Made by a program: the position numbers and the translations under genes
NCBI GenBank assembly: GCA_021821305.1
Contig: JAKACP010000001.1
Location: forward strand, 330,453-394,452
DNA: 64,000 nt
From: a bacterium
GTDB taxonomy: Bacteria; Patescibacteriota; Minisyncoccia; Moranbacterales; UBA1568
Reading direction: 5' to 3'
In this document: piece after piece, positions 2,852 through 60,741 of the stretch
Position numbering within the stretch: the first letter of the stretch is position 1
Layout of the letters: every line of letters begins with the position of its first letter
The notes under the pieces: generated by a model
Seen by the model: only the letters and a program-made list of their open reading frames with translations
Database searches by the model: none
Told to the model about the DNA's origin: nothing

Positions 2852-3028
2852 ATGGCCGCAAAAAAGAAAGTCGCGAAGAAGAAAGTCGCGAAGAAGGCAG
2901 TGAAGAAGACCGTGAAGAAGGCTGTGAAGAAGGTCGCCAAGAAGGCGGTAAAGAAGACCGCGAAGAAGGCGGTAAAGAAGACCGCGAAGAAGGCTACCAA
3001 GAAAGCGACGAAGAAGGGTAAGAAATAG
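2852..3028 (+). CDS. Small lysine-rich histone H1/Hc1-like DNA-binding protein (AKKAVKK repeats), 58 aa
   Basis: Strong SD AAAGGAGGTG 7 nt upstream of the ATG; KKAVKKT repeat protein; absent from the ORF track because it is <60 aa; the minus-strand ORF 2794-3000 is its mirror image. Confidence 0.6.
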   Translation: MAAKKKVAKKKVAKKAVKKTVKKAVKKVAKKAVKKTAKKAVKKTAKKATKKATKKGKK

Positions 3029-3079
3029 TCTTATTTCTCCACTTTTTGGTTCTTCGAATAATCCCGCCGCAAGGCGGGT

Positions 3080-4006
3080 TTATTCATGTCCGAGAACAAA
3101 GGAAAAGATGCGTGATCTCCCCGACAGATCGGGGAGTATGGAGGACCGTTCGCGCGGGAATGTCCCCTTGAAGAGGTCGGTGATGAGGGCGTCCTGTTCG
3201 GGACCGATCTCGAATATTCCACGGATGCCAAGAGACGGATATGCCTCCGTCATTTTTCGTATCTGTGAGAAGAGTTCGCGATAGTGATCGAGTCCGTCCG
3301 CTCCGCTTTCGAGCGCGTCCTTCGGTTCGTAGAGTCGCACGTCGTCGGAGGAGGAGCGGTAGATATCCGAGGAGAGATAGGGGAGATTCGCGAGGATGAC
3401 GAGCTCATCAGTGGCGACGATCGATCCCGTGATCGGTTCGAGAAGGCTTCCCTGATGAAATGAGATGATATCGCCGACCCCGTTTCGTTCCGCGTTCGCT
3501 TCCGCCATCCTGAGCGCGGCGGCGGAAATATCGATGGCATGGAACGCGAACATCGATTTCTCCTGCATGAGTTCGGCGGCGACGGATACGATGATGGCTC
3601 CGCTGCCGGTGCCCACATCCGCGACGAGGATGTTCTTTGCCGGCTTTGCCGTTTCATCCGCGATGAGCCGGCGCAGCTCCTCGATCGCCCGTTCCACGAG
3701 GAGTTCGGTTTCCGGTCGGGGAATGAGCGTATTTTCGGTCACGAGAAAGGATCGGCCGAAAAATTCCTTTTCCCCGACGATGTAGGCGACCGGTTCGCTC
3801 CGCTTCCGCCGTTCGAACATCCCGACCGCTTTTCGGTATTCCTCGTCGGAGAGGACGTGTTCGGGATGGGCGAAGAGGAACTCTTTCGACCGGCCCGCGG
3901 CATGGGCGAGCAGGATGAAGAGGTCTTCGGGAGCGAGCGCCGCCGCGTACGCTTTCCGGATGTGTCCGACCGTCTTATCGTTCATCGGAATTGTGGTGGC
4001 TGTCAT
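3080..4006 (-). CDS. prmC: Release factor glutamine methyltransferase PrmC/HemK
   Basis: SAM MTase motifs [11 protein letters not shown] and NLPY; ATG overlaps the prfA stop (ATGA); start chosen at MTATT rather than the upstream ORF start. Confidence 0.8.
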
Positions 4007-5088
4007 TTGTTCGATTCCTGTTCGAGTTTGCGGCGCATGTCCTCTTCCTCGAGCGCGGTGGCGATGTCCTTGAGGCCGCCGTTCAGTATCCCGGGGATGT
4101 TGCTCCACGATTCCTTGATGCGGTGATCCGTGACGCGATCCTGGGGGAAATTGTACGTGCGGATCTTCTCGGAGCGGTCTCCGGTACCGATCTGGTTGCG
4201 CCGCGTGTCACCGAGCTCCTTGGCCTGCCGCTCCTCCTCCATCTGGAGGATGCGGGAACGGAGCACCTTCATCGCCTTTTCCTTGTTCTTGATCTGGGAT
4301 TTCTCGTCCTGACAGGACACGACGGTATTGGTCGGTATGTGCGTAATGCGCACCGCGCTGTAGGTCGTGTTGACCGATTGGCCGCCGGGGCCGGAGGAAC
4401 AGAAGGTATCGATACGCAGGTCGCTCGGATTGATCTCGATGTCGACCTCTTCGGCCACCGGAAGCACCGCGACCGTCGCGGTCGAGGTGTGTATGCGGCC
4501 GGCCTTCTCGGTTTCCGGTATGCGCTGGACCCGGTGGACACCCGATTCGTACTTCAGTTTCTGATAGACGGGGGAGGGGGAACTTCCACGGCTCACCTCG
4601 AAGACGACTTCCTTGAACCCGCCGACTTCGGTCTGGTTCGAGTGGAGGACGTTGAGACGCCACTCCATGATTTCGGCATAGCGCGAATACATACGGAACA
4701 GATCCGCCGCGAACAGACTGGATTCGTCGCCACCGGCACCGCCGCGGATTTCCACGATCGCATCCTTGTCGTCGTTCGGGTCGCGGGGGAGGAGGAGCTT
4801 CTTCAGCTCCTTTTCGAGCGTGTCGCGGCGGACGGCAAGCGAGATGTTCTCCTCCATCGCCAGTTGCTTGAACTCCTCGTCGTCGGAATCCCTGATGATT
4901 CCCGCGTTTTCCTTCATCGATCGCAGGACGGCGTCGAATTCCCGCGCACGCTCAAGGACGCCGGAAAGCTCCGCTTTGCGGCGACCGAGCACGGCGAGGC
5001 GCTTCGGGTCCCTCGAGACCTCCGGGTCGCTCAGTTCGGCATCGACCCGCTCCGCCTCCTCCTGGATATTTTTTATGAGTTCGTCCAT
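4003..5088 (-). CDS. prfA: Peptide chain release factor 1
   Basis: GGQ motif ([11 protein letters not shown]), full-length RF1 similarity. Confidence 0.9.
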
Positions 5089-5124
5089 ATGTCTCCATGA
5101 TACTACGAAAGCGTCTTCAATCTA

Positions 5125-5306
5125 AGAGCCTGTTGAAAAACTCACCGCCATGAAAGAAGATACCCGCTTGTCGGCTAAAATTCCGAAATTTCGTCTGCAA
5201 ACCGCTCACGCCTCGTCGGAATATCTCGATATTCCTCCTCGACCTTCACGGTTTTCGATCGAAATTTCGGAATTTGTAGCTCGACATGACTTTTTCAACA
5301 GGCTCT
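5125..5306 (-). repeat. Palindromic intergenic element, copy 4 (reverse orientation relative to copies 1-3)
   Basis: Terminal inverted repeats AGAGCCTGTTGAAAAA/TTTTTCAACAGGCTCT; conserved core motifs shared with copies at 18252, 20964 and 39296. Confidence 0.7.
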
Positions 5307-5361
5307 AAGCAAAAGGCGCCTGCCGAAATCGTATGGCAAGCGCCCCTGTTTCCGCGCCGGA

Positions 5362-8440: not shown

Positions 8441-8524
8441 GGGCAGGTGGCGGAGCGGTCAATCGCAGCAGACTGTAAATCTGTCGCCCTACGGGCTACG
8501 GGGGTTCGAATCCCTCCCTGCCCA
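8441..8524 (+). tRNA. tRNA-Tyr(GTA), long variable arm
   Basis: Acceptor GGGCAGG/CCTGCCC; anticodon loop CTGTAAA; T-loop TTCGAAT. Confidence 0.85.
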
Positions 8525-8600
8525 CAGAAGCCGTTTTTGATGTCGCAAGCGTGGCAATGGAGTCGGTTTTATGAAGAAGGAGGGAGGGATGAGAAGTTTA

Positions 8601-8637
8601 TGCCCCGCAGGGGTAAATCCCTCCCTGCCCACAGAAA

Positions 8638-8643
<6 letters not shown>
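8601..8643 (+). repeat. Duplicate of the tRNA-Tyr 3' end (AATCCCTCCCTGCCCACAGAA) preceded by hairpin GCCCCGCAGGGGT; att-like scar
   Basis: 21-27 bp direct repeat of 8509-8535, placed 80 bp downstream of tRNA-Tyr. Confidence 0.6.
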
Positions 8644-21868: not shown

Positions 21869-22057
21869 TGTTAGGCAGTCTGAAGGAAGTACTGCTTCTT
21901 TTTTACTGTATTCCGCACATTTACAATCGATGGAGAAATCACAATTTTTTGTGGTTGGTCCTAAATTTCTTTGAGAAGGGTCATAGTCATCTTTGTAGGG
22001 TTTCCTTCGGGAAGCTCTACTCGGGGAAAACCTGTCTTCGGATAGATTTTCCTCTTT

Positions 22058-23549
<1,492 letters not shown>

Positions 23550-26707: not shown

Positions 26708-26910
26708 GAAACGCAAAAAAAAACGATGTCCCAGGAAAGACTTCTCACAAGATACCGTAAAAGCAGGGCTCTGTCAAACGCCGAAAATCCTGTTGACGCG
26801 GGCTCTCTTTCACGGTACAACGTATGAGTGGCTCGCCGATCATTCGGCTGAAAAACGCTCCTGTGGTGAAATGCCTGCTTGTCGGCAGACAGGGATATCA
26901 CAAGGGTGAT

Positions 26911-39469: not shown

Positions 39470-39510
39470 AGAACCCCGACGCGTAAAGGGGATAGCGTCG
39501 GGGTTAAGAA
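39470..39510 (-). terminator. Minus-strand terminator (AACCCCGACGC...GCGTCGGGGTT plus T8) after gene 39605-39976
   Basis: Seen in sequence. Confidence 0.5.
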
Positions 39511-39604
39511 CCGCCTATGGATTTACCCGTTCTGGCGGGTGAGGAACGGACCAAGGAGTATCCGTTCCGAAATCCATGACGGGGGACACACGAATCAGGT
39601 CACA

Positions 39605-39976
39605 TCAGAACATCGACAGGCGCTCGGCCGGGATGGGGGTGAAGCGTCGCTTGGCCCCCGGATTGAGCGTGTCGTCGTTCGCGAGTTTCCTTCTGACGGG
39701 GACATCGTTGCCGAGGCCGAGCTCGCCGAGCATGTCACGTACGAATGACTCGTCGATTTCGAACGTCGTCCGGGTGGGCGAGGTCGGCTTCATGAGTACC
39801 CGGGTCTTGTCGGTATGCAGGGAAAACCCGGCGCCGTTGTTTTTCAGGAATGTCTCGAGGCCTTTCCGTATGCCGACGCGGTCCTGCGGATCCGGTTCAC
39901 GATTGAGTTCAAGGGTGATATTTCCGGTTCCGATGTTGAGCCACGCGGCGACACAGAAAAGAGGGGATCGGTTCAT
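39605..39976 (-). CDS. Hypothetical secreted protein
   Basis: ORF with a signal-peptide-like N-terminus. Confidence 0.35.
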   Translation of the reverse strand: MNRSPLFCVAAWLNIGTGNITLELNREPDPQDRVGIRKGLETFLKNNGAGFSLHTDKTRVLMKPTSPTRTTFEIDESFVRDMLGELGLGNDVPVRRKLANDDTLNPGAKRRFTPIPAERLSMF

Positions 39977-40067
39977 GTGAATCTCCAAGAATGTGAAGGG
40001 ACGAAACAAGACTTCCTTGTGAAGAAGTCTTGTTATTTAAGCAGGAAATATACCTTTTGTCAATATG

Positions 40068-40139
40068 TGCGCTCGGCAGGAATCGAACCTGCATCGCCTC
40101 CTTCGGAGGGAGGCGTCCTATCCATTGAACGACGAGCGC
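40068..40139 (-). tRNA. tRNA-Arg(CCG)
   Basis: Acceptor GCGCTCG/CGAGCGC; anticodon loop CTCCGAA. Confidence 0.75.
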
Positions 40140-40152
40140 GATTTTTTGGTGT

Positions 40153-40224
40153 GCGCTTGGCAGGAATCGAACCTGCGACCTTCTGGACCGCAACCAGACG
40201 CTCTATCCACTGAGCTACAAGCGC
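40153..40224 (-). tRNA. tRNA-Arg(GCG)
   Basis: Acceptor GCGCTTG/CAAGCGC; perfect anticodon stem TCTGG/CCAGA; loop TTGCGGT. Confidence 0.75.
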
Positions 40225-40263
40225 AAATTTTTCTATCTTCTTCAACCAGTCAACTAGCTTGAA

Positions 40264-40341
40264 GTTGCGGTACCGCAACCAGACGCTCCCCGCCCGAACG
40301 TACCGTTCGGTACGGGCGGGTATCCACTGAGCTACAAGCGC
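40264..40341 (-). pseudogene. Partial copy of tRNA-Arg(GCG), positions 1-38, carrying a 32-nt palindromic insert in the D-loop
   Basis: GCGCTTGTAGCTCAGTGGATA [CCCGCCCGTACCGAACGGTACGTTCGGGCGGG] GAGCGTCTGGTTGCGGT, then ACCGCAA completing an 18-nt palindrome; lies 39 nt upstream of the intact gene. Confidence 0.6.
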
Positions 40342-40417
40342 AAAAAGAAACACAGCCCTCCAAGTATCTCTCTCAAATCTCCGTATTCTGCTGCAACAAT
40401 GCTCTTTTGAGGGCTCA

Positions 40418-41005
40418 CTAAATATGGAATATTCTCTCGATCGTGTCAATGAGCCCCGGCTCGTACTTCTGCTCGGGGACAAATGGTGCTATGAGGCTCC
40501 GTATCGCCTGGGGGTTCTGTTCGGCGAGCGGTATATGCACGTGGGATATGAGCAGACCGTCGGTCCGGATGATGAGGTGCTTGGGGAAATCCGGATGATC
40601 CTCGAGAATCCAGAACGAGGCGATATCGTCGTATTCGTAGAATTCCCGTCCGACGGAGATACCCTTGTCCATCACCGCGTACCGGACCGGTTCCTCGGGG
40701 CGGTTGAGCGAGAGATAGCCCACCATGCCGATGAGGATGAAGACGATGGCCATGAGCGGGCTGTCGGTGTAGATGGCATAGGCCACGATGACGATGAGCG
40801 CCGCGATGGCTATCGTGACGGCTCTCGAGCCGAACTGTGCGGGCTCATGCTCGAGCGTTTCCCACTGGGCGAGGACTTTGCCGCTCTTCCGATCGGAAAT
40901 CGGAGGGGAGGCGGTTTTCGGGGCCGGATCCTCTATCGGTTCCGGCTTCCCGCCGAGAAAGGGCGAGCCGTTGGCGGATCCGGGCGTCTTCATGTCGAAA
41001 CTCAT
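40418..41005 (-). CDS. Hypothetical membrane protein
   Basis: ORF with 2 TM helices. Confidence 0.4.
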   Translation of the reverse strand: MSFDMKTPGSANGSPFLGGKPEPIEDPAPKTASPPISDRKSGKVLAQWETLEHEPAQFGSRAVTIAIAALIVIVAYAIYTDSPLMAIVFILIGMVGYLSLNRPEEPVRYAVMDKGISVGREFYEYDDIASFWILEDHPDFPKHLIIRTDGLLISHVHIPLAEQNPQAIRSLIAPFVPEQKYEPGLIDTIERIFHI

Positions 41006-41117
41006 AGGCGTGGCGACAAGGATGATCGATTCTTATCTCGGATTATACCATAGGTACGGCCACGCTTCACAAACCACCCGGGGTTTGCTAGCCTGATGGA
41101 ACATCGGATGGAGACAG

Positions 41118-41204
41118 GGAGGAGTGGCCGAGTGGTTGAAGGCAACAGTCTTGAAAACTGTCATACCGGAAACGGTATCGTGAGTTCGAATCTCACCTCC
41201 TCCG
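41118..41204 (+). tRNA. tRNA-Ser(TGA)
   Basis: Acceptor GGAGGAG/CTCCTCC; long variable arm; anticodon loop CTTGAAA. Confidence 0.8.
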
Positions 41205-41229
41205 CAGTAATTCCTTAACGTGGAGATCT

Positions 41230-41547
41230 ATGAAAAGAGCGGTGAAGGGGTTTCTCGACTTCGTCCGGGAACAGGGAGTTGTCGGTCTCGCGATCGGTTT
41301 CATATTGGGCGGCGCGGTATCCAAAGTGGTATCGGCGCTCGTGACCGATATCATCAACCCGATCATCTCGTTCTTGATCGGATCGAACGAAGGACTGAAG
41401 GAAACGCATATCGCGCTCGGCGACGCGAAGATCATGTGGGGGGATTTCCTGTCCGTCATCATCGACTTCCTTATCATCGCCGCGGTCATCTATTTCGGAT
41501 TCAAGGGACTGGGCCTCGATAAGCTCGACAAGAAGAAGGAGAAGTAG
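41230..41547 (+). CDS. mscL: Large-conductance mechanosensitive channel MscL
   Basis: F..F..RGNVVDLAVG..IG-like N-terminus; two TM helices; K/E-rich tail. Confidence 0.8.
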   Translation: MKRAVKGFLDFVREQGVVGLAIGFILGGAVSKVVSALVTDIINPIISFLIGSNEGLKETHIALGDAKIMWGDFLSVIIDFLIIAAVIYFGFKGLGLDKLDKKKEK

Positions 41548-43325: not shown

Positions 43326-44930
43326 CTAGCATCGGTTAGGCATCAAGGAAAGGTGGGTGAGCGGCTGAAACCAGCACACTGCTAACGTGCCAGGGGGTAA
43401 AACCCCTCGAGGGTTCGAATCCCTCCCTTTCCGCCAAAATTGGAAGTCTGCATTGGAACCCGAAATGGGGTCGCGCCGAAGGCGCGACACTAATGCATTC
43501 CCCCCAAAAAATTCTGAATCTGAAAGGGTTTTCCACGCTCCGCGTGGCTCAAAAAGTACGGTTCGATCCTTAATTAAAAAGTTCGAACCGACTTTTTTGA
43601 ACAAATGAGTATTTTCCTCATTTGTTCGGTCGTTTGCCAATTCCATATTGTATTTCAAAAACTTTTCGGTAAGTTCGAACCGATTATTCGCTTTTTGTTC
43701 AAAAGCCGATAATTTCTCTTTGAGAAGCTGTTTTGCGGCAACCAGAGCATTTTTAGCATCACGATATTCTTCTAGTGAAAGTGCGCTCTCCAAATACGCC
43801 GTCATCAGCTTCTCAATTTTGATTTCTAAAAGAGAAATATCGGTTTTCAAGTTATCGGCAAAAAGCGTACTCGATTGGATTTCGGATGATTGGTCTTTTC
43901 TGTTTTCTTCAATCATCCAAGAAAGCCAATCGAGGGGCAAAGAAACTTTTTTGATTTCTTCTTGAATTTGAAAAGTGATGAGCTCCTCGCGGACATACTT
44001 CTGCTCACAAGGATTTTTCCGTTTGGTACATCGCAAATAGTTATGACCTTTTTGTTGCTCGGTGGTAATGAAGCAACCACATTCTCCGCAACGGAAAAAT
44101 CCTCTGTACAAATAATCCTTTAGCCCGCGAGATTTCGGTTTTGACTTTCGGCTCATCACTTCTTGAACGGAATCAAAAAGTTTCTTTGTGATAATTGGTT
44201 CATGCTTTCCCTCAAAAATCTCGCCATTGTAAAGCATTAAACCTGTGTAAATAGGATTTTTGAGAAGTTTTTGATAATTCGACACCGCAAGTTCCTTTCC
44301 GCTTTTTCGCTTCAATCCAAGTGCGTTAAATTTGTCGCGGAGTTCTCGCAAAGTGAAAGACCCAGACGAATATGCCTCAAATGTTTTCTTAATTAAGGGT
44401 GCGATATTTTCATCAACAACAATTTTTCCACCCTTGTTTATATATCCCAACGGAGACATTTGAGGCCATATTCCGTCTTTCACTTTGTTTCTCTTTCCAC
44501 GCTTGATATTTTCCGACAAATTATCGACATAATACTTGGATTGCGAAAAAGCGATTGAGAGCATGAACTTGCCTTGCGGTGTCGGATCAAACCAAAAAGT
44601 TGGGAATTTCATTTCAGAAATTACCCCGGTATCAACGAGGTAGATTATTTTTCCTCCATCTACCGAGTTGCGAGCAAGTCTATCAGGATGCCACGCCAAA
44701 ATACCAGTAGCTTCGCCCGCTTCCATTCTCGCTATCATTTCATTAAACACAGGGCGACCTGGTATTTTGGCGGTCTGCTTTTCGACAAAGACATCTACCA
44801 CTTCCAATTGTTCTTTCAACGCGAGTTCCTTTAATTCACTTAACTGGTCGGCAATACTGCGGACTTGTCTGTCTTTGTCGTCCGTAGACTTGCGAGTATA
44901 GATGAAAAACTTTTTGGTTTGATTATTCAT
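43326..44930 (-). CDS. Large serine recombinase (resolvase domain, recombinase domain, Zn ribbon); the C-terminal ~68 codons read through IR-A and antisense to tRNA-Ser
   Basis: N-terminal YTRKSTDDKDRQVRSIADQ with catalytic Ser; recombinase domain; CGECGC zinc ribbon; the functional C-terminus probably ends near residue ~465. Confidence 0.8.
   Translation of the reverse strand: MNNQTKKFFIYTRKSTDDKDRQVRSIADQLSELKELALKEQLEVVDVFVEKQTAKIPGRPVFNEMIARMEAGEATGILAWHPDRLARNSVDGGKIIYLVDTGVISEMKFPTFWFDPTPQGKFMLSIAFSQSKYYVDNLSENIKRGKRNKVKDGIWPQMSPLGYINKGGKIVVDENIAPLIKKTFEAYSSGSFTLRELRDKFNALGLKRKSGKELAVSNYQKLLKNPIYTGLMLYNGEIFEGKHEPIITKKLFDSVQEVMSRKSKPKSRGLKDYLYRGFFRCGECGCFITTEQQKGHNYLRCTKRKNPCEQKYVREELITFQIQEEIKKVSLPLDWLSWMIEENRKDQSSEIQSSTLFADNLKTDISLLEIKIEKLMTAYLESALSLEEYRDAKNALVAAKQLLKEKLSAFEQKANNRFELTEKFLKYNMELANDRTNEENTHLFKKVGSNFLIKDRTVLFEPRGAWKTLSDSEFFGGNALVSRLRRDPISGSNADFQFWRKGRDSNPRGVLPPGTLAVCWFQPLTHLSLMPNRC
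43347..43436 (+). tRNA. tRNA-Ser(GCT), CCA encoded
   Basis: Acceptor GGAAAGG/CCTTTCC; long variable arm; anticodon loop CTGCTAA. Confidence 0.8.
43431..43550. repeat. IR-A left arm (120 bp), perfect inverted repeat of 44952-45071
   Basis: Sequence comparison; includes CCGCCA from the tRNA-Ser 3' terminus. Confidence 0.8.
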
Positions 44931-47477: not shown

Positions 47478-47750
47478 ACGGCGAAGCAAAACCAAAAATT
47501 TCCTTTCCATTTCTTTTTCCGCTTCGCGGTGGAGGGGGTGGGGGGAGGAGACGCGAGAAAAATGCAAGGAAATTTTTTGGTCTTTGCACACGCGAGTCCG
47601 CGAGCGTGTCCGAGGCGCTTTGGTTCGCATCACCACGCAATCCGAGCGTACAATGCAGTTTCAAGTCACCACGCGCTCCGCGCGTGCGATTAGGGCTCAT
47701 CGTCAGGATTTAGCTCAAAATACATTCGAACGTTGTCTAATACACACCGC
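47478..47750. repeat. IR-B right arm
   Basis: Reverse complement matches 45068-45339. Confidence 0.8.
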
Positions 47751-48211
47751 AGAAGTGAAAGAGGAGCCATTTTGTATGGCTCCTTTTTTGCTTCTATGAT
47801 GAACGCATTCGGAGTTTATGCCCCGAAGGGGTAAATCCCTCCCTTTCCGCATCAAGCTCATAGTATCGAGGGTGACCCGAGAGCCTCGAATGAGCAACAT
47901 AAAACCAAACCGCCGGTAAATGGCGGTTTTATTCTTTCTGATCTATAGATCTTCTTTACTGTATGATCCCTCTCTTTTGACTGTCACGGACAATCTTACT
48001 TTGGTCCCATAAGCTCGAGAAATTTCATGGGGTCTATCGAGAAACCGCCTATACGAACCGAGAGATGGAGGTGAGGGCCGAGAGAATAGCCCGTATTGCC
48101 GCTCTTGGCTACGGGGTCACCTTTTCCCACGTTGTCGCCCGCTTCTACACCGATTTCGGAAAGATGCATGTACATGGTCATGATACCCAATCCATGATCA
48201 ATGATGACGGT
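47747..48211. repeat. 465-bp direct repeat DR-1; includes the att-like copy of the tRNA-Ser 3' end, two terminator hairpins and the last 72 codons of an M23 peptidase gene. Identical to 60277-60741
   Basis: 100% identity at a constant offset of 12,530 bp. Confidence 0.85.
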
Positions 48212-60276: not shown

Positions 60277-60741
60277 CCGCAGAAGTGAAAGAGGAGCCAT
60301 TTTGTATGGCTCCTTTTTTGCTTCTATGATGAACGCATTCGGAGTTTATGCCCCGAAGGGGTAAATCCCTCCCTTTCCGCATCAAGCTCATAGTATCGAG
60401 GGTGACCCGAGAGCCTCGAATGAGCAACATAAAACCAAACCGCCGGTAAATGGCGGTTTTATTCTTTCTGATCTATAGATCTTCTTTACTGTATGATCCC
60501 TCTCTTTTGACTGTCACGGACAATCTTACTTTGGTCCCATAAGCTCGAGAAATTTCATGGGGTCTATCGAGAAACCGCCTATACGAACCGAGAGATGGAG
60601 GTGAGGGCCGAGAGAATAGCCCGTATTGCCGCTCTTGGCTACGGGGTCACCTTTTCCCACGTTGTCGCCCGCTTCTACACCGATTTCGGAAAGATGCATG
60701 TACATGGTCATGATACCCAATCCATGATCAATGATGACGGT
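60277..60741. repeat. 465-bp direct repeat DR-2 (identical to 47747-48211)
   Basis: Sequence comparison. Confidence 0.85.

Follow-up and report, generated by a model that had tools for sequence, protein, structure and literature searches.

The 64,000-nt stretch of the Moranbacterales contig JAKACP010000001.1 (assembly GCA_021821305.1, positions 330,453 to 394,452), referred to here as the window, contains an intact tRNA-Arg(GCG) gene that is preceded on the same strand by a partial copy of its own 5' part, into which a GC-rich hairpin is inserted. Such partial tRNA copies, here called ghosts, are prevalent at Moranbacterial tRNA genes. At a probability of about one half, the ghost of the window is a non-functional relic, i.e., the displaced 5' part of an older tRNA-Arg(GCG) copy and the scar of a small insertion that was later hit by a palindromic element. 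The insertion is supported by the ancestral position of the fragment, by the unrelated spacer that follows it, by a conserved junction, and by architectures in relatives that combine an insert with a replacement tRNA. The involvement of a hairpin element is supported by a family of GC-rich palindromes, members of which are found in the ghost loops of several tRNA types and species.

Structure of the tRNA-Arg(GCG) locus

All coordinates of the locus refer to the minus strand, read 5' to 3'. The ghost consists of two segments that together comprise tRNA-Arg(GCG) positions 1-38. Segment A (40321..40344) contains TTT followed by positions 1-21 (GCGCTTGTAGCTCAGTGGATA, 40341-40321), including the 5' strands of the acceptor stem and D-stem and the D-loop, and segment B (GAGCGTCTGGTTGCGGT, 40272..40288) contains positions 22-38, including the 3' strand of the D-stem, the 5' strand of the anticodon stem and the whole anticodon loop. 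Both segments are 100% identical to the live gene, segment A as a 24-nt direct repeat of 40204-40227, located with a repeat finder, in which the three preceding T residues are duplicated too, and segment B as a 17-nt direct repeat of 40187-40203. These two perfect repeats bear out the first-pass annotation of the sequence, which had described the fragment as positions 1-38 ending at the anticodon loop. The intact tRNA-Arg(GCG) gene lies at 40151..40224 (Rfam RF00005, 74 bits) and is followed by tRNA-Arg(CCG) at 40067..40139 (64.3 bits), the next gene in what is presumed to be the same transcription unit. ARAGORN, one of the tRNA finders that the annotation had suggested for the region, calls these two intact tRNA-Arg genes and nothing in the fragment; Rfam does not call the fragment as a tRNA either, and positions 39-73 are missing from it.

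The two ghost segments are separated by a GC-rich insert of 32 nt (CCCGCCCGTACCGAACGGTACGTTCGGGCGGG, 40289..40320), which lies in the D-loop, as had been noted, exactly between tRNA positions 21 and 22. The insertion is clean (GGATA-insert-GAGCG), with no target duplication. The earlier description of the insert as palindromic holds for its 8-bp perfect outer stem (CCCGCCCG/CGGGCGGG); the insert as a whole is a hairpin and not a perfect palindrome, since the stem encloses an inner hairpin of 5-6 bp and a 4-nt asymmetric bulge (GTTC). As RNA it folds with -20.3 kcal/mol (z = -3.1). It has no second copy in the window, also at a tolerance of 3 mismatches (0 copies expected by chance). Members of the same family occur in relatives.

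Segment B is directly followed by the inverted complement of its own 3' end. Positions 31-38 (GTTGCGGT) and the adjoining ACCGCAAC together form a perfect palindrome of 16 nt (GTTGCGGTACCGCAAC, 40264..40279) with a predicted folding energy of -9.0 kcal/mol. The junction reads GGTTGCGGTACCGCAACT and not ...CAACC, which corrects the 18 nt given previously. The spacer that begins with ACCGCAAC and ends with AAAAATTT is likewise 47 nt long (40225..40271) rather than 45 nt; assigning the duplicated TTT to the repeat shortens it to 44 nt. This spacer resembles neither the leader of the operon nor the spacers of the two related loci L004 and L156 described below. No open reading frame (ORF), recombinase or transposase is present in the 47 nt between the repeats. 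A currently integrated element is not supported, given this short distance and the lack of an ORF.

Orthologous loci in related genomes

The locus was compared with related loci, designated by L numbers. The tRNA 46-mer was found in metagenome-assembled genomes (MAGs) of Moranbacteria/Patescibacteria only, and the homologues of the upstream protein are named Candidatus Moranbacteria. In the nearest case, L001 (contig DAHWJN010000002.1, MAG GCA_027344085.1), the upstream protein is identical and 500 bases (L001 3100-3600) match the window by eye. The tRNA/hairpin junction recurs in L002, an independent assembly of run SRR13304626 whose contig ends inside the hairpin. The same layout, with substitutions in the ghost, is present in L004, which derives from a different run and has 81% identity in the flanking protein. 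Here a 35-nt relative of the hairpin occupies the same D-loop site, a second related hairpin follows position 9, and the junction reads GGTTGCGGTCCCGCAAC. Two further assemblies with 43-45% flanking-protein identity (L156 and L173) contain a ghost as well; its D-loop is interrupted at the identical site by a hairpin of 20 nt, and its junction is the same. Thus, the junction, GGTTGCGGT(A/C)CCGCAAC / GGTTGCGGTCCCGCAAC, is kept in L004, L156 and L173. Because these three independent datasets inherit the structure with substitutions, comparison of the sequences indicates that it is not an assembly artefact.

Other relatives possess a single clean tRNA, located straight after a leader hairpin and T-run. 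These include L003 (88% protein and 85% DNA identity), L118 and L119 (84%), L005 and L006. In the window the conserved leader, with an inverted repeat (GCCCTC...GAGGGC, 40354..40415) followed by the T-run, abuts the ghost, and a new flank, with AAAAATTT at its end, precedes the live gene. The ghost therefore occupies the ancestral position, the one held by the intact tRNA in the clean relatives. The locus also shares other properties with remnants of attachment (att) sites, i.e., a direct repeat of a tRNA segment, extending from a loop to the gene end, that flanks non-tRNA DNA, and an empty site in close relatives. The first-pass annotation had termed the structure a tandem partial duplication. 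A partial copy is indeed present upstream, but since the spacer is unlike the leader the structure did not arise by simple tandem duplication of contiguous DNA.

A 195-aa gene, tRNA-Arg(GCG) and tRNA-Arg(CCG) follow each other in the nearer relatives, with RecG next in L001 and L004-L006, and a homologue of the 195-aa gene is detectable at most of about 140 tRNA-Arg loci, down to approximately 30% identity. At 70-71% identity, L120 and L129 contain another type of ghost, in which positions 1-12 are followed by two small GC hairpins and by positions 13-18 (L120) or 13-20 (L129). As a separate observation, the tRNA-Arg(CCG) genes of L006 (3724-3797) and L140 have a GCG-type body instead of the usual CCG-type, a sequence pattern that suggests duplication followed by a change of anticodon.

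The 195-aa gene lies upstream of the leader on the minus strand, with its stop codon at 40420-40418; a Pfam search revealed no informative domain in the 195-aa and 123-aa flanking proteins. Within the 3' end of this gene a promoter-like sequence, TTGACA-17-CATATT (40421..40449, minus strand), shows 10/12 matches to the sigma-70 consensus and is kept in orthologous loci down to 67% protein identity. It is presumed from its sequence to be the promoter of the tRNA-Arg operon. As it is the sole sigma-70-like site in 39800-40700 and its DNA is conserved in relatives, the ghost is probably located in the transcribed 5' leader of the operon. A scan detected no intrinsic terminator at the ghost hairpins; GAGCGTCT stands behind the 32-nt hairpin, and TTCAAGC behind the junction hairpin. 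The leader hairpin behind the 195-aa gene is itself terminator-like. Its loop measures 7 nt in L003, L004 and L118, and 42 nt separate its arms in the window, some 35 nt more, so that the locus has a further hairpin loop with an insertion.

Ghosts and GC-rich palindromes at Moranbacterial tRNA genes

A search for the intact tRNA in GTDB representative genomes and JGI metagenomes yielded 24 and 109 new loci, respectively, giving together with the earlier ones the set of about 140. In this set 5' ghosts lie upstream of tRNA-Arg in about 20 distinct loci, and 3' ghosts lie downstream in a similar number. For a broader survey, ghosts were defined as same-strand partial copies of at least 11 nt, within 400 nt of the gene and outside other tRNAs, and were sought at all predicted tRNAs in 850 kb of Moranbacterial DNA. 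They are present at 86 of 308 distinct tRNA contexts, against a rough chance estimate of about 4. The counts are 40/126 for Arg-GCG, 28/77 for Ser-TGA, 14/52 for Ser-GCT and 1/1 for Tyr.

Most of the ghosts examined contain GC-rich hairpins, at loop positions. The D-loop site 21/22 is occupied in seven lineages (the window, L004, L150, L156, L166, L208 and L227). Hairpins are also found after position 12 (L120, L129, L136, L142), at anticodon 35/36 (L162, L208), at T-loop 56/57 (L217) and at the border of T-stem and acceptor stem (L168, L234, L151, L165). Two possible signatures of inserted elements were tried and rejected. Far-off ghosts that might mark a full-size element are just chance 13-mers in coding sequence (e.g., L123 at 1024), and an A-rich leader as the signature of an inserted cassette shows, over all loci, only a weak association (odds ratio 2.9, p = 0.04) that is confounded by lineage. 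In addition, a repeat unit ggggtcgggaaaac...ttttcccgg...aaaccgcaaggtttt aaggagg is present on both sides of tRNA-Arg, or before its ghost, in L138, L145, L240, L175, L211, L215 and L250.

The hairpin of the window belongs to a family, CCYGCCYG...CRGGCRGG, with conserved arms and interiors of 0-47 nt, which is represented in the window and in L004, L120, L150, L151, L156, L165, L166, L208, L217, L227 and L234. The outer stem CCCGCCCG/CGGGCGGG encloses other interiors in L004 (twice), L120, L151 (47-nt interior) and L165, the L151 and L165 cases being 3' ghosts. A sister form of the stem, CCTGCCTG/CAGGCAGG, occurs as the 20-nt perfect palindrome CCTGCCTGCCGGCAGGCAGG in D-loops and T-loops of Arg and Ser ghosts and beside an inverted Glu ghost. 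At pairs 3 and 7 the two stem forms show double compensatory changes from C-G to T-A, and G-T intermediates are observed. The family shows a strong preference for tRNA surroundings. Of 19 family matches (up to 3 mismatches allowed), 17 have a predicted tRNA gene no more than 200 nt away, compared with 15.3% of bases. One further match is situated in a ghost of tRNA-Ser, the contig ending within the live gene. The insertions show no target duplication, as in GGATA-hairpin-GAGCG and GGTTC-hairpin-GATTC.

The window as a whole contains one copy of the 32-mer and one related 20-mer. The latter, the palindrome variant CCTGCTTGTCGGCAGACAGG (26874-26893, plus strand), lies 17 nt upstream of tRNA-Arg(TCG), in its leader, where a promoter-like TTGACG-17-TACAAC, read by eye, is found upstream of it and no obvious ghost is seen.

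The exact 20-mer CCTGCCTGCCGGCAGGCAGG is also present in 35 stretches of IMG/VR viral contigs (L255-L289) with 38-68% G+C, with up to six copies on one contig (IMGVR_UViG_3300037242_000417). Some of these viral copies are flanked by direct repeats of 7-14 nt (L257, L263, L273). One interrupts the variable loop of an otherwise complete tRNA-Met (L279; likewise L256, with a deletion), and another (L286) interrupts the D-loop of a tRNA, where its relative position is that of the insert in the window. The looser pattern CCCGCCCG-N(10-25)-TTCGGGCGGG has 111 matches in viral contigs, which are generic GC-rich hairpins and uninformative. A literature search retrieved no paper containing the 20-nt palindrome.

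Nested tRNA genes in relatives

Several relatives contain one tRNA-Arg gene inside another. In L154 (1087-1290) the T-loop of the outer tRNA-Arg, of which positions 1-53 and 58-73 are present, is interrupted by an insert with 14-bp inverted repeats at its ends (cacg-CCCCCACACCAAAA ... TTTTGGTGTGGGGG-taaa). Within the insert lies a complete tRNA-Arg(GCG) whose acceptor and T-stem differ from those of the outer gene, and it is the inner gene that is called by ARAGORN. In L229 (around 4900-5330) three inserts bounded by CCCCGCAC.../...GTGCGGGG are located in the D-, anticodon- and T-loops, and the D-loop insert contains the live gene between perfect 16-nt inverted repeats. Similar nested cases are found in L165 (around 2970-3250), L181, L244, L248 and L254. 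The inner and outer tRNA-Arg of the nested genes differ in the acceptor stem. Judged from these sequences, the nested inserts are insertions that replaced the old gene and not introns, because their removal would not restore a normal T-loop or D-stem and because Rfam, applied to ten related loci, finds tRNAs only, with no intron family at gathering score.

Recombinase-linked and miniature modules in the same window

The window also contains tRNA genes with ghosts in the usual, 3' orientation. A large serine recombinase of 534 aa (ORF 43326-44930, minus strand), which has Resolvase, Recombinase and Zn_ribbon_recom domains, follows a tRNA-Ser(GCT) gene (43347-43436). This tRNA has its 3' end repeated at 47834-47850 and at 60364-60380, each time behind TTTATGCCCCGAAGGGGTA, forming junction modules of hairpin plus 3' ghost at 47816-47850 and 60346-60380. 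Perfect repeats of 300 bp are located at 47747-48046 and 60277-60576. The cargo between 43347 and 60576 includes a multicopper oxidase, a P-type ATPase, a cation efflux protein, DsbA-like proteins and three M23 peptidase paralogues. From this arrangement, two islands have probably accreted in tandem at tRNA-Ser(GCT), the second one containing the metal-resistance genes and having the 300-bp repeats as its borders.

In the tRNA-Tyr region, direct repeats of 27 nt (8509-8535 and 8616-8643, plus strand) flank only 80 nt. The repeats cover the tRNA-Tyr 3' end, a 4-5-nt spacer and the first 6 nt of tRNA-Thr(GGT). The right end of the 80-nt insert is GGGATGAGAAG...TTTATGCCCCGCAGGGGTA, and the combination of TTTATGCCCCGCAGGGGTA and a 3' ghost is the same module as at tRNA-Ser. 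The genome thus has both full-size and miniature versions of an arrangement of insert, tRNA ghost and hairpin. A module like that at tRNA-Tyr occurs upstream of tRNA-Arg in L230. The window further contains genes for tRNA-Arg(GCG), (TCG) and (CCG), with no tRNA-Arg(ACG) seen there, and a 16S rRNA gene of normal length (22055-23548, plus strand); the 64-kb window has no 23S rRNA gene, i.e., the rRNA genes are unlinked.

Origin of the ghost

The sequences themselves demonstrate the anatomy of the locus, its inheritance, the kinship of the hairpins, the empty sites in relatives and the prevalence of ghosts at Moranbacterial tRNA genes, whereas the mechanism of insertion, the sequence of events and the lack of a function are inferred. 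The most probable history of the structure comprises three steps. In the first, DNA of approximately 85 nt would have been inserted at the 3' edge of the anticodon loop, starting with ACCGCAAC, the inverted complement of the loop. It would have brought the spacer and fresh positions 1-38, such that a working gene was rebuilt downstream and the old 5' part was stranded upstream. Such a target-repairing insertion would be comparable to those of tRNA-targeting integrative elements, in the rarer 5' orientation and in miniature. Subsequently, a GC-rich palindrome with arms CCYGCCYG/CRGGCRGG may have entered the D-loop of the stranded copy cleanly, where it would be harmless. Gene conversion would then have kept the ghost identical to the live gene, unless the event is young, and the clean relatives could result from precise loss by recombination between the repeats. 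A recombinase or transposase that acts in trans is envisaged to carry out the insertion, guided by the stem-loop-stem geometry of tRNA arms. Two origins had been offered by the first-pass annotation, namely an element that integrated in the anticodon loop and left a remnant, and a hairpin element whose insertion inactivated one of two tandem tRNA copies; the evidence backs a mix of both, without separating them fully.

A wider proposal, which is doubtful on present evidence, would be that Moranbacteria, and possibly some phages, harbour undescribed miniature elements that are bounded by inverted repeats and recognise the stem-loop-stem geometry of tRNA arms. These would insert in D-, anticodon- or T-loops and bring part or all of a replacement tRNA ("insertional tRNA gene replacement"), and so survive in essential single-copy genes. 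Bare palindromes such as the 32-mer and CCTGCCTGCCGGCAGGCAGG would then be the ends of internally deleted elements, and the ghost of the window would be a footprint.

Several observations weigh against an origin of the ghost by insertion. No enzyme is linked to the structure, the 47 nt between the repeats being devoid of an ORF as described above. The 5' orientation is unusual among tRNA-integrating elements, and large serine recombinases neither need nor make long identical repeats. The lack of a target-site duplication at the hairpin does not fit classical cut-and-paste transposition of a miniature inverted-repeat transposable element (MITE). None of the approximately 140 loci contains a 5' ghost more than about 200 nt from the live gene, and hence no full-size element of the 5' type is seen. 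In viral contigs, a phage attachment site (attP) with the tRNA 5' half was sought with 0 matches, and the junction likewise gave 0. The identity of ghost and live gene at 38/38 positions needs either gene conversion with very short tracts or a very recent origin. Finally, the presence of the same three-part architecture down to 43% flanking-protein identity could reflect ancient vertical descent with constraint, and not repeated insertion; this would hint at a function.

The main rival explanation, a rather unlikely one in our estimate, is that the ghost is what remains of an ancient tandem paralogue that has been decaying. The Moranbacterial ancestor would have possessed a tandem pair of tRNA-Arg(GCG) genes, and the dispensable upstream copy would have gathered palindromes and been deleted to varying lengths, with positions 1-38 left in the window. 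This would agree with the near full-length upstream copies in L162 and L208, which contain inserts at the D-loop, at anticodon 35/36 and at the variable/T junction and lie 20-30 nt from the live gene, and with the series of ghost lengths (1-12, 1-19, 1-38, 1-53 and about 1-65); the D-loop hairpin at the same site in seven lineages would fit a single ancient insertion. However, the nearest relatives of every ghost-bearing locus are clean, so that many independent precise losses would be needed, and junk would have to persist for a long time in genomes that measure about 1 Mb. Nor was the spacer in front of the live gene copied from the leader, and the CCGCAAC junction is not tRNA-derived in its orientation, yet it is conserved. 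In the nested L154, L165 and L229 the inner gene, with its different acceptor stem and its bounding inverted repeats, points to insertion and not to tandem duplication. The possibility that the ghost is instead a functional element is considered improbable. It could be part of a structured pre-tRNA leader or a DNA site for a dimeric protein, with a role as a helper of processing or folding, as a decoy for a tRNA-binding enzyme or integrase, or as an operator, and its hairpins would be under selection. Its probable location in the transcribed leader would be consistent with this, as would the fold of the 121-nt ghost region, which is more stable than those of shuffled sequences (-46.5 kcal/mol, z -3.8), the junction hairpin that is invariant in three diverged lineages next to a spacer that cannot be aligned, the compensatory changes in the hairpin stem, and the resemblance of the 20-nt perfect palindromes to binding sites of dimeric proteins. 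Against a function, the ghost is missing from the closest relatives (L003, L118) and from most loci, which argues that it is dispensable. The unpaired ghost positions 27-31 drift (TCTGG, TCCGG, TTTGG), and correction by template switching can keep the arms of a palindrome matched without selection. Besides tRNA there is no Rfam match. The acceptor-like closing stem predicted for the window (GCTTG/CAAGC) is not kept in L004 or L156, and a reading as a conserved three-way-junction RNA was therefore rejected.

Two further explanations have far less to commend them. In a split or intron-containing tRNA gene, the hairpin and the material downstream of it would be removed and the fragment would be an exon of a working gene. 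Inserts in D-, anticodon- and T-loops are reminiscent of non-canonical archaeal introns, and the outer acceptor stem of L229 has one matched change (GCGCTTA/TAAGCGC). Group I introns are, moreover, frequent in Patescibacterial tRNA genes (PMC13011429). For the window this reading is already contradicted, and it is regarded as very improbable. The 3' part of a second gene (positions 39-73) is found neither within 300 nt nor as a 13-mer anywhere in the window, there is no group I or II intron match (E < 1) in 39500-41500 and none in ten related loci, and inserts of 20-40 nt are far too short for self-splicing. Removal of the inserts in the nested cases would leave both T-loop and D-stem abnormal, and L181 has outer acceptor strands that do not pair with each other. 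That the repeat and the palindromes were made by the assembler or by chimeric reads is hardly credible. The source is a short-read MAG, and a second assembly of a run with the same gene (L002) breaks inside the hairpin, but L002 independently reproduces the tRNA/hairpin junction. The first-pass annotation had counted clean relatives, in combination with reads that fail to support the junction, as a sign of misassembly; the closest relatives are indeed clean, but L004, L156 and L173, from other samples, carry the whole architecture in diverged form.

If the insertion scenario is correct, tRNA genes in these very small genomes turn over by means of short insertions, each of which disrupts the existing gene and brings its replacement, after which the ghosts gather palindromes. 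Disrupted, intron-rich and nested tRNA genes, so far known chiefly from archaea, would thereby have a counterpart in bacteria, and the scenario would bear on the old idea that links tRNA gene disruption with the integration of mobile elements. It would also explain in part why tRNA annotation is error-prone in genomes of the candidate phyla radiation (CPR), and ghosts could serve as a marker of recent recombination at tRNA loci. The palindrome family would have an unusually strict preference for tRNA loops, and the enzyme behind this preference could be a structure-guided recombinase. If the ghost is merely decaying junk, it is a well-documented curiosity of a compact genome.

Comparison with known systems

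The ghost shows similarities to three kinds of known systems. The att remnants of integrative elements and islands share with it a direct repeat of the tRNA from a loop to the gene end, foreign DNA between the repeats, an intact gene that is rebuilt and an empty site in relatives, and the serine recombinase at tRNA-Ser(GCT) provides a typical case in the same window. Williams and colleagues, in their work on tRNA and tmRNA integration sites, reportedly describe such remnants, including a rare class that restores the 5' part of the target. Unlike typical att remnants, the ghost has only 47 nt and no recombinase between its repeats, it repeats the 5' part instead of the usual 3' part, and an extra palindrome is present in the stranded copy.

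Small palindromic elements are known as repetitive extragenic palindromes (REP) and bacterial interspersed mosaic elements (BIME), as MITEs, as Rickettsia palindromic elements, and as the GC clusters or double-hairpin elements of fungal and sponge mitochondria. The palindromes described here are similar to the REP and MITE types in that they are short GC-rich hairpins with conserved ends and a variable interior, which occur at many sites, in several species and at permissive positions of RNA genes. In contrast to these types, they are nearly confined, in the DNA sampled, to places beside or within tRNA-like sequences, at loop positions (17/19 matches), and do not appear to be dispersed in high copy, with only two members in the 64-kb window; they show no target-site duplication and have no known linked transposase.

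Disrupted tRNA genes are known from archaea, as multi-intron and split genes. The interruptions at D-, anticodon- and T-loops are a common property, and the host phylum is known for interrupted tRNA and rRNA genes. The ghost differs in the absence of a self-splicing signature, in the shortness of the inserts and in that excision restores no normal tRNA; moreover, the interrupted copy is truncated and has a complete, uninterrupted gene beside it. In Patescibacteria, group I introns have been reported in tRNA genes, including position 35/36 (PMC13011429). A literature search on Patescibacterial tRNA genes found only these introns described (PMC13011429) and no small tRNA-targeting insertion elements of the present kind. 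Both tRNA ghosts at the ends of islands and small palindromic repeats are of kinds already known; new are their combination, the 5' miniature form, the strict loop preference of the palindromes, the nesting of tRNA genes within tRNA genes and the prevalence of these features in the CPR.

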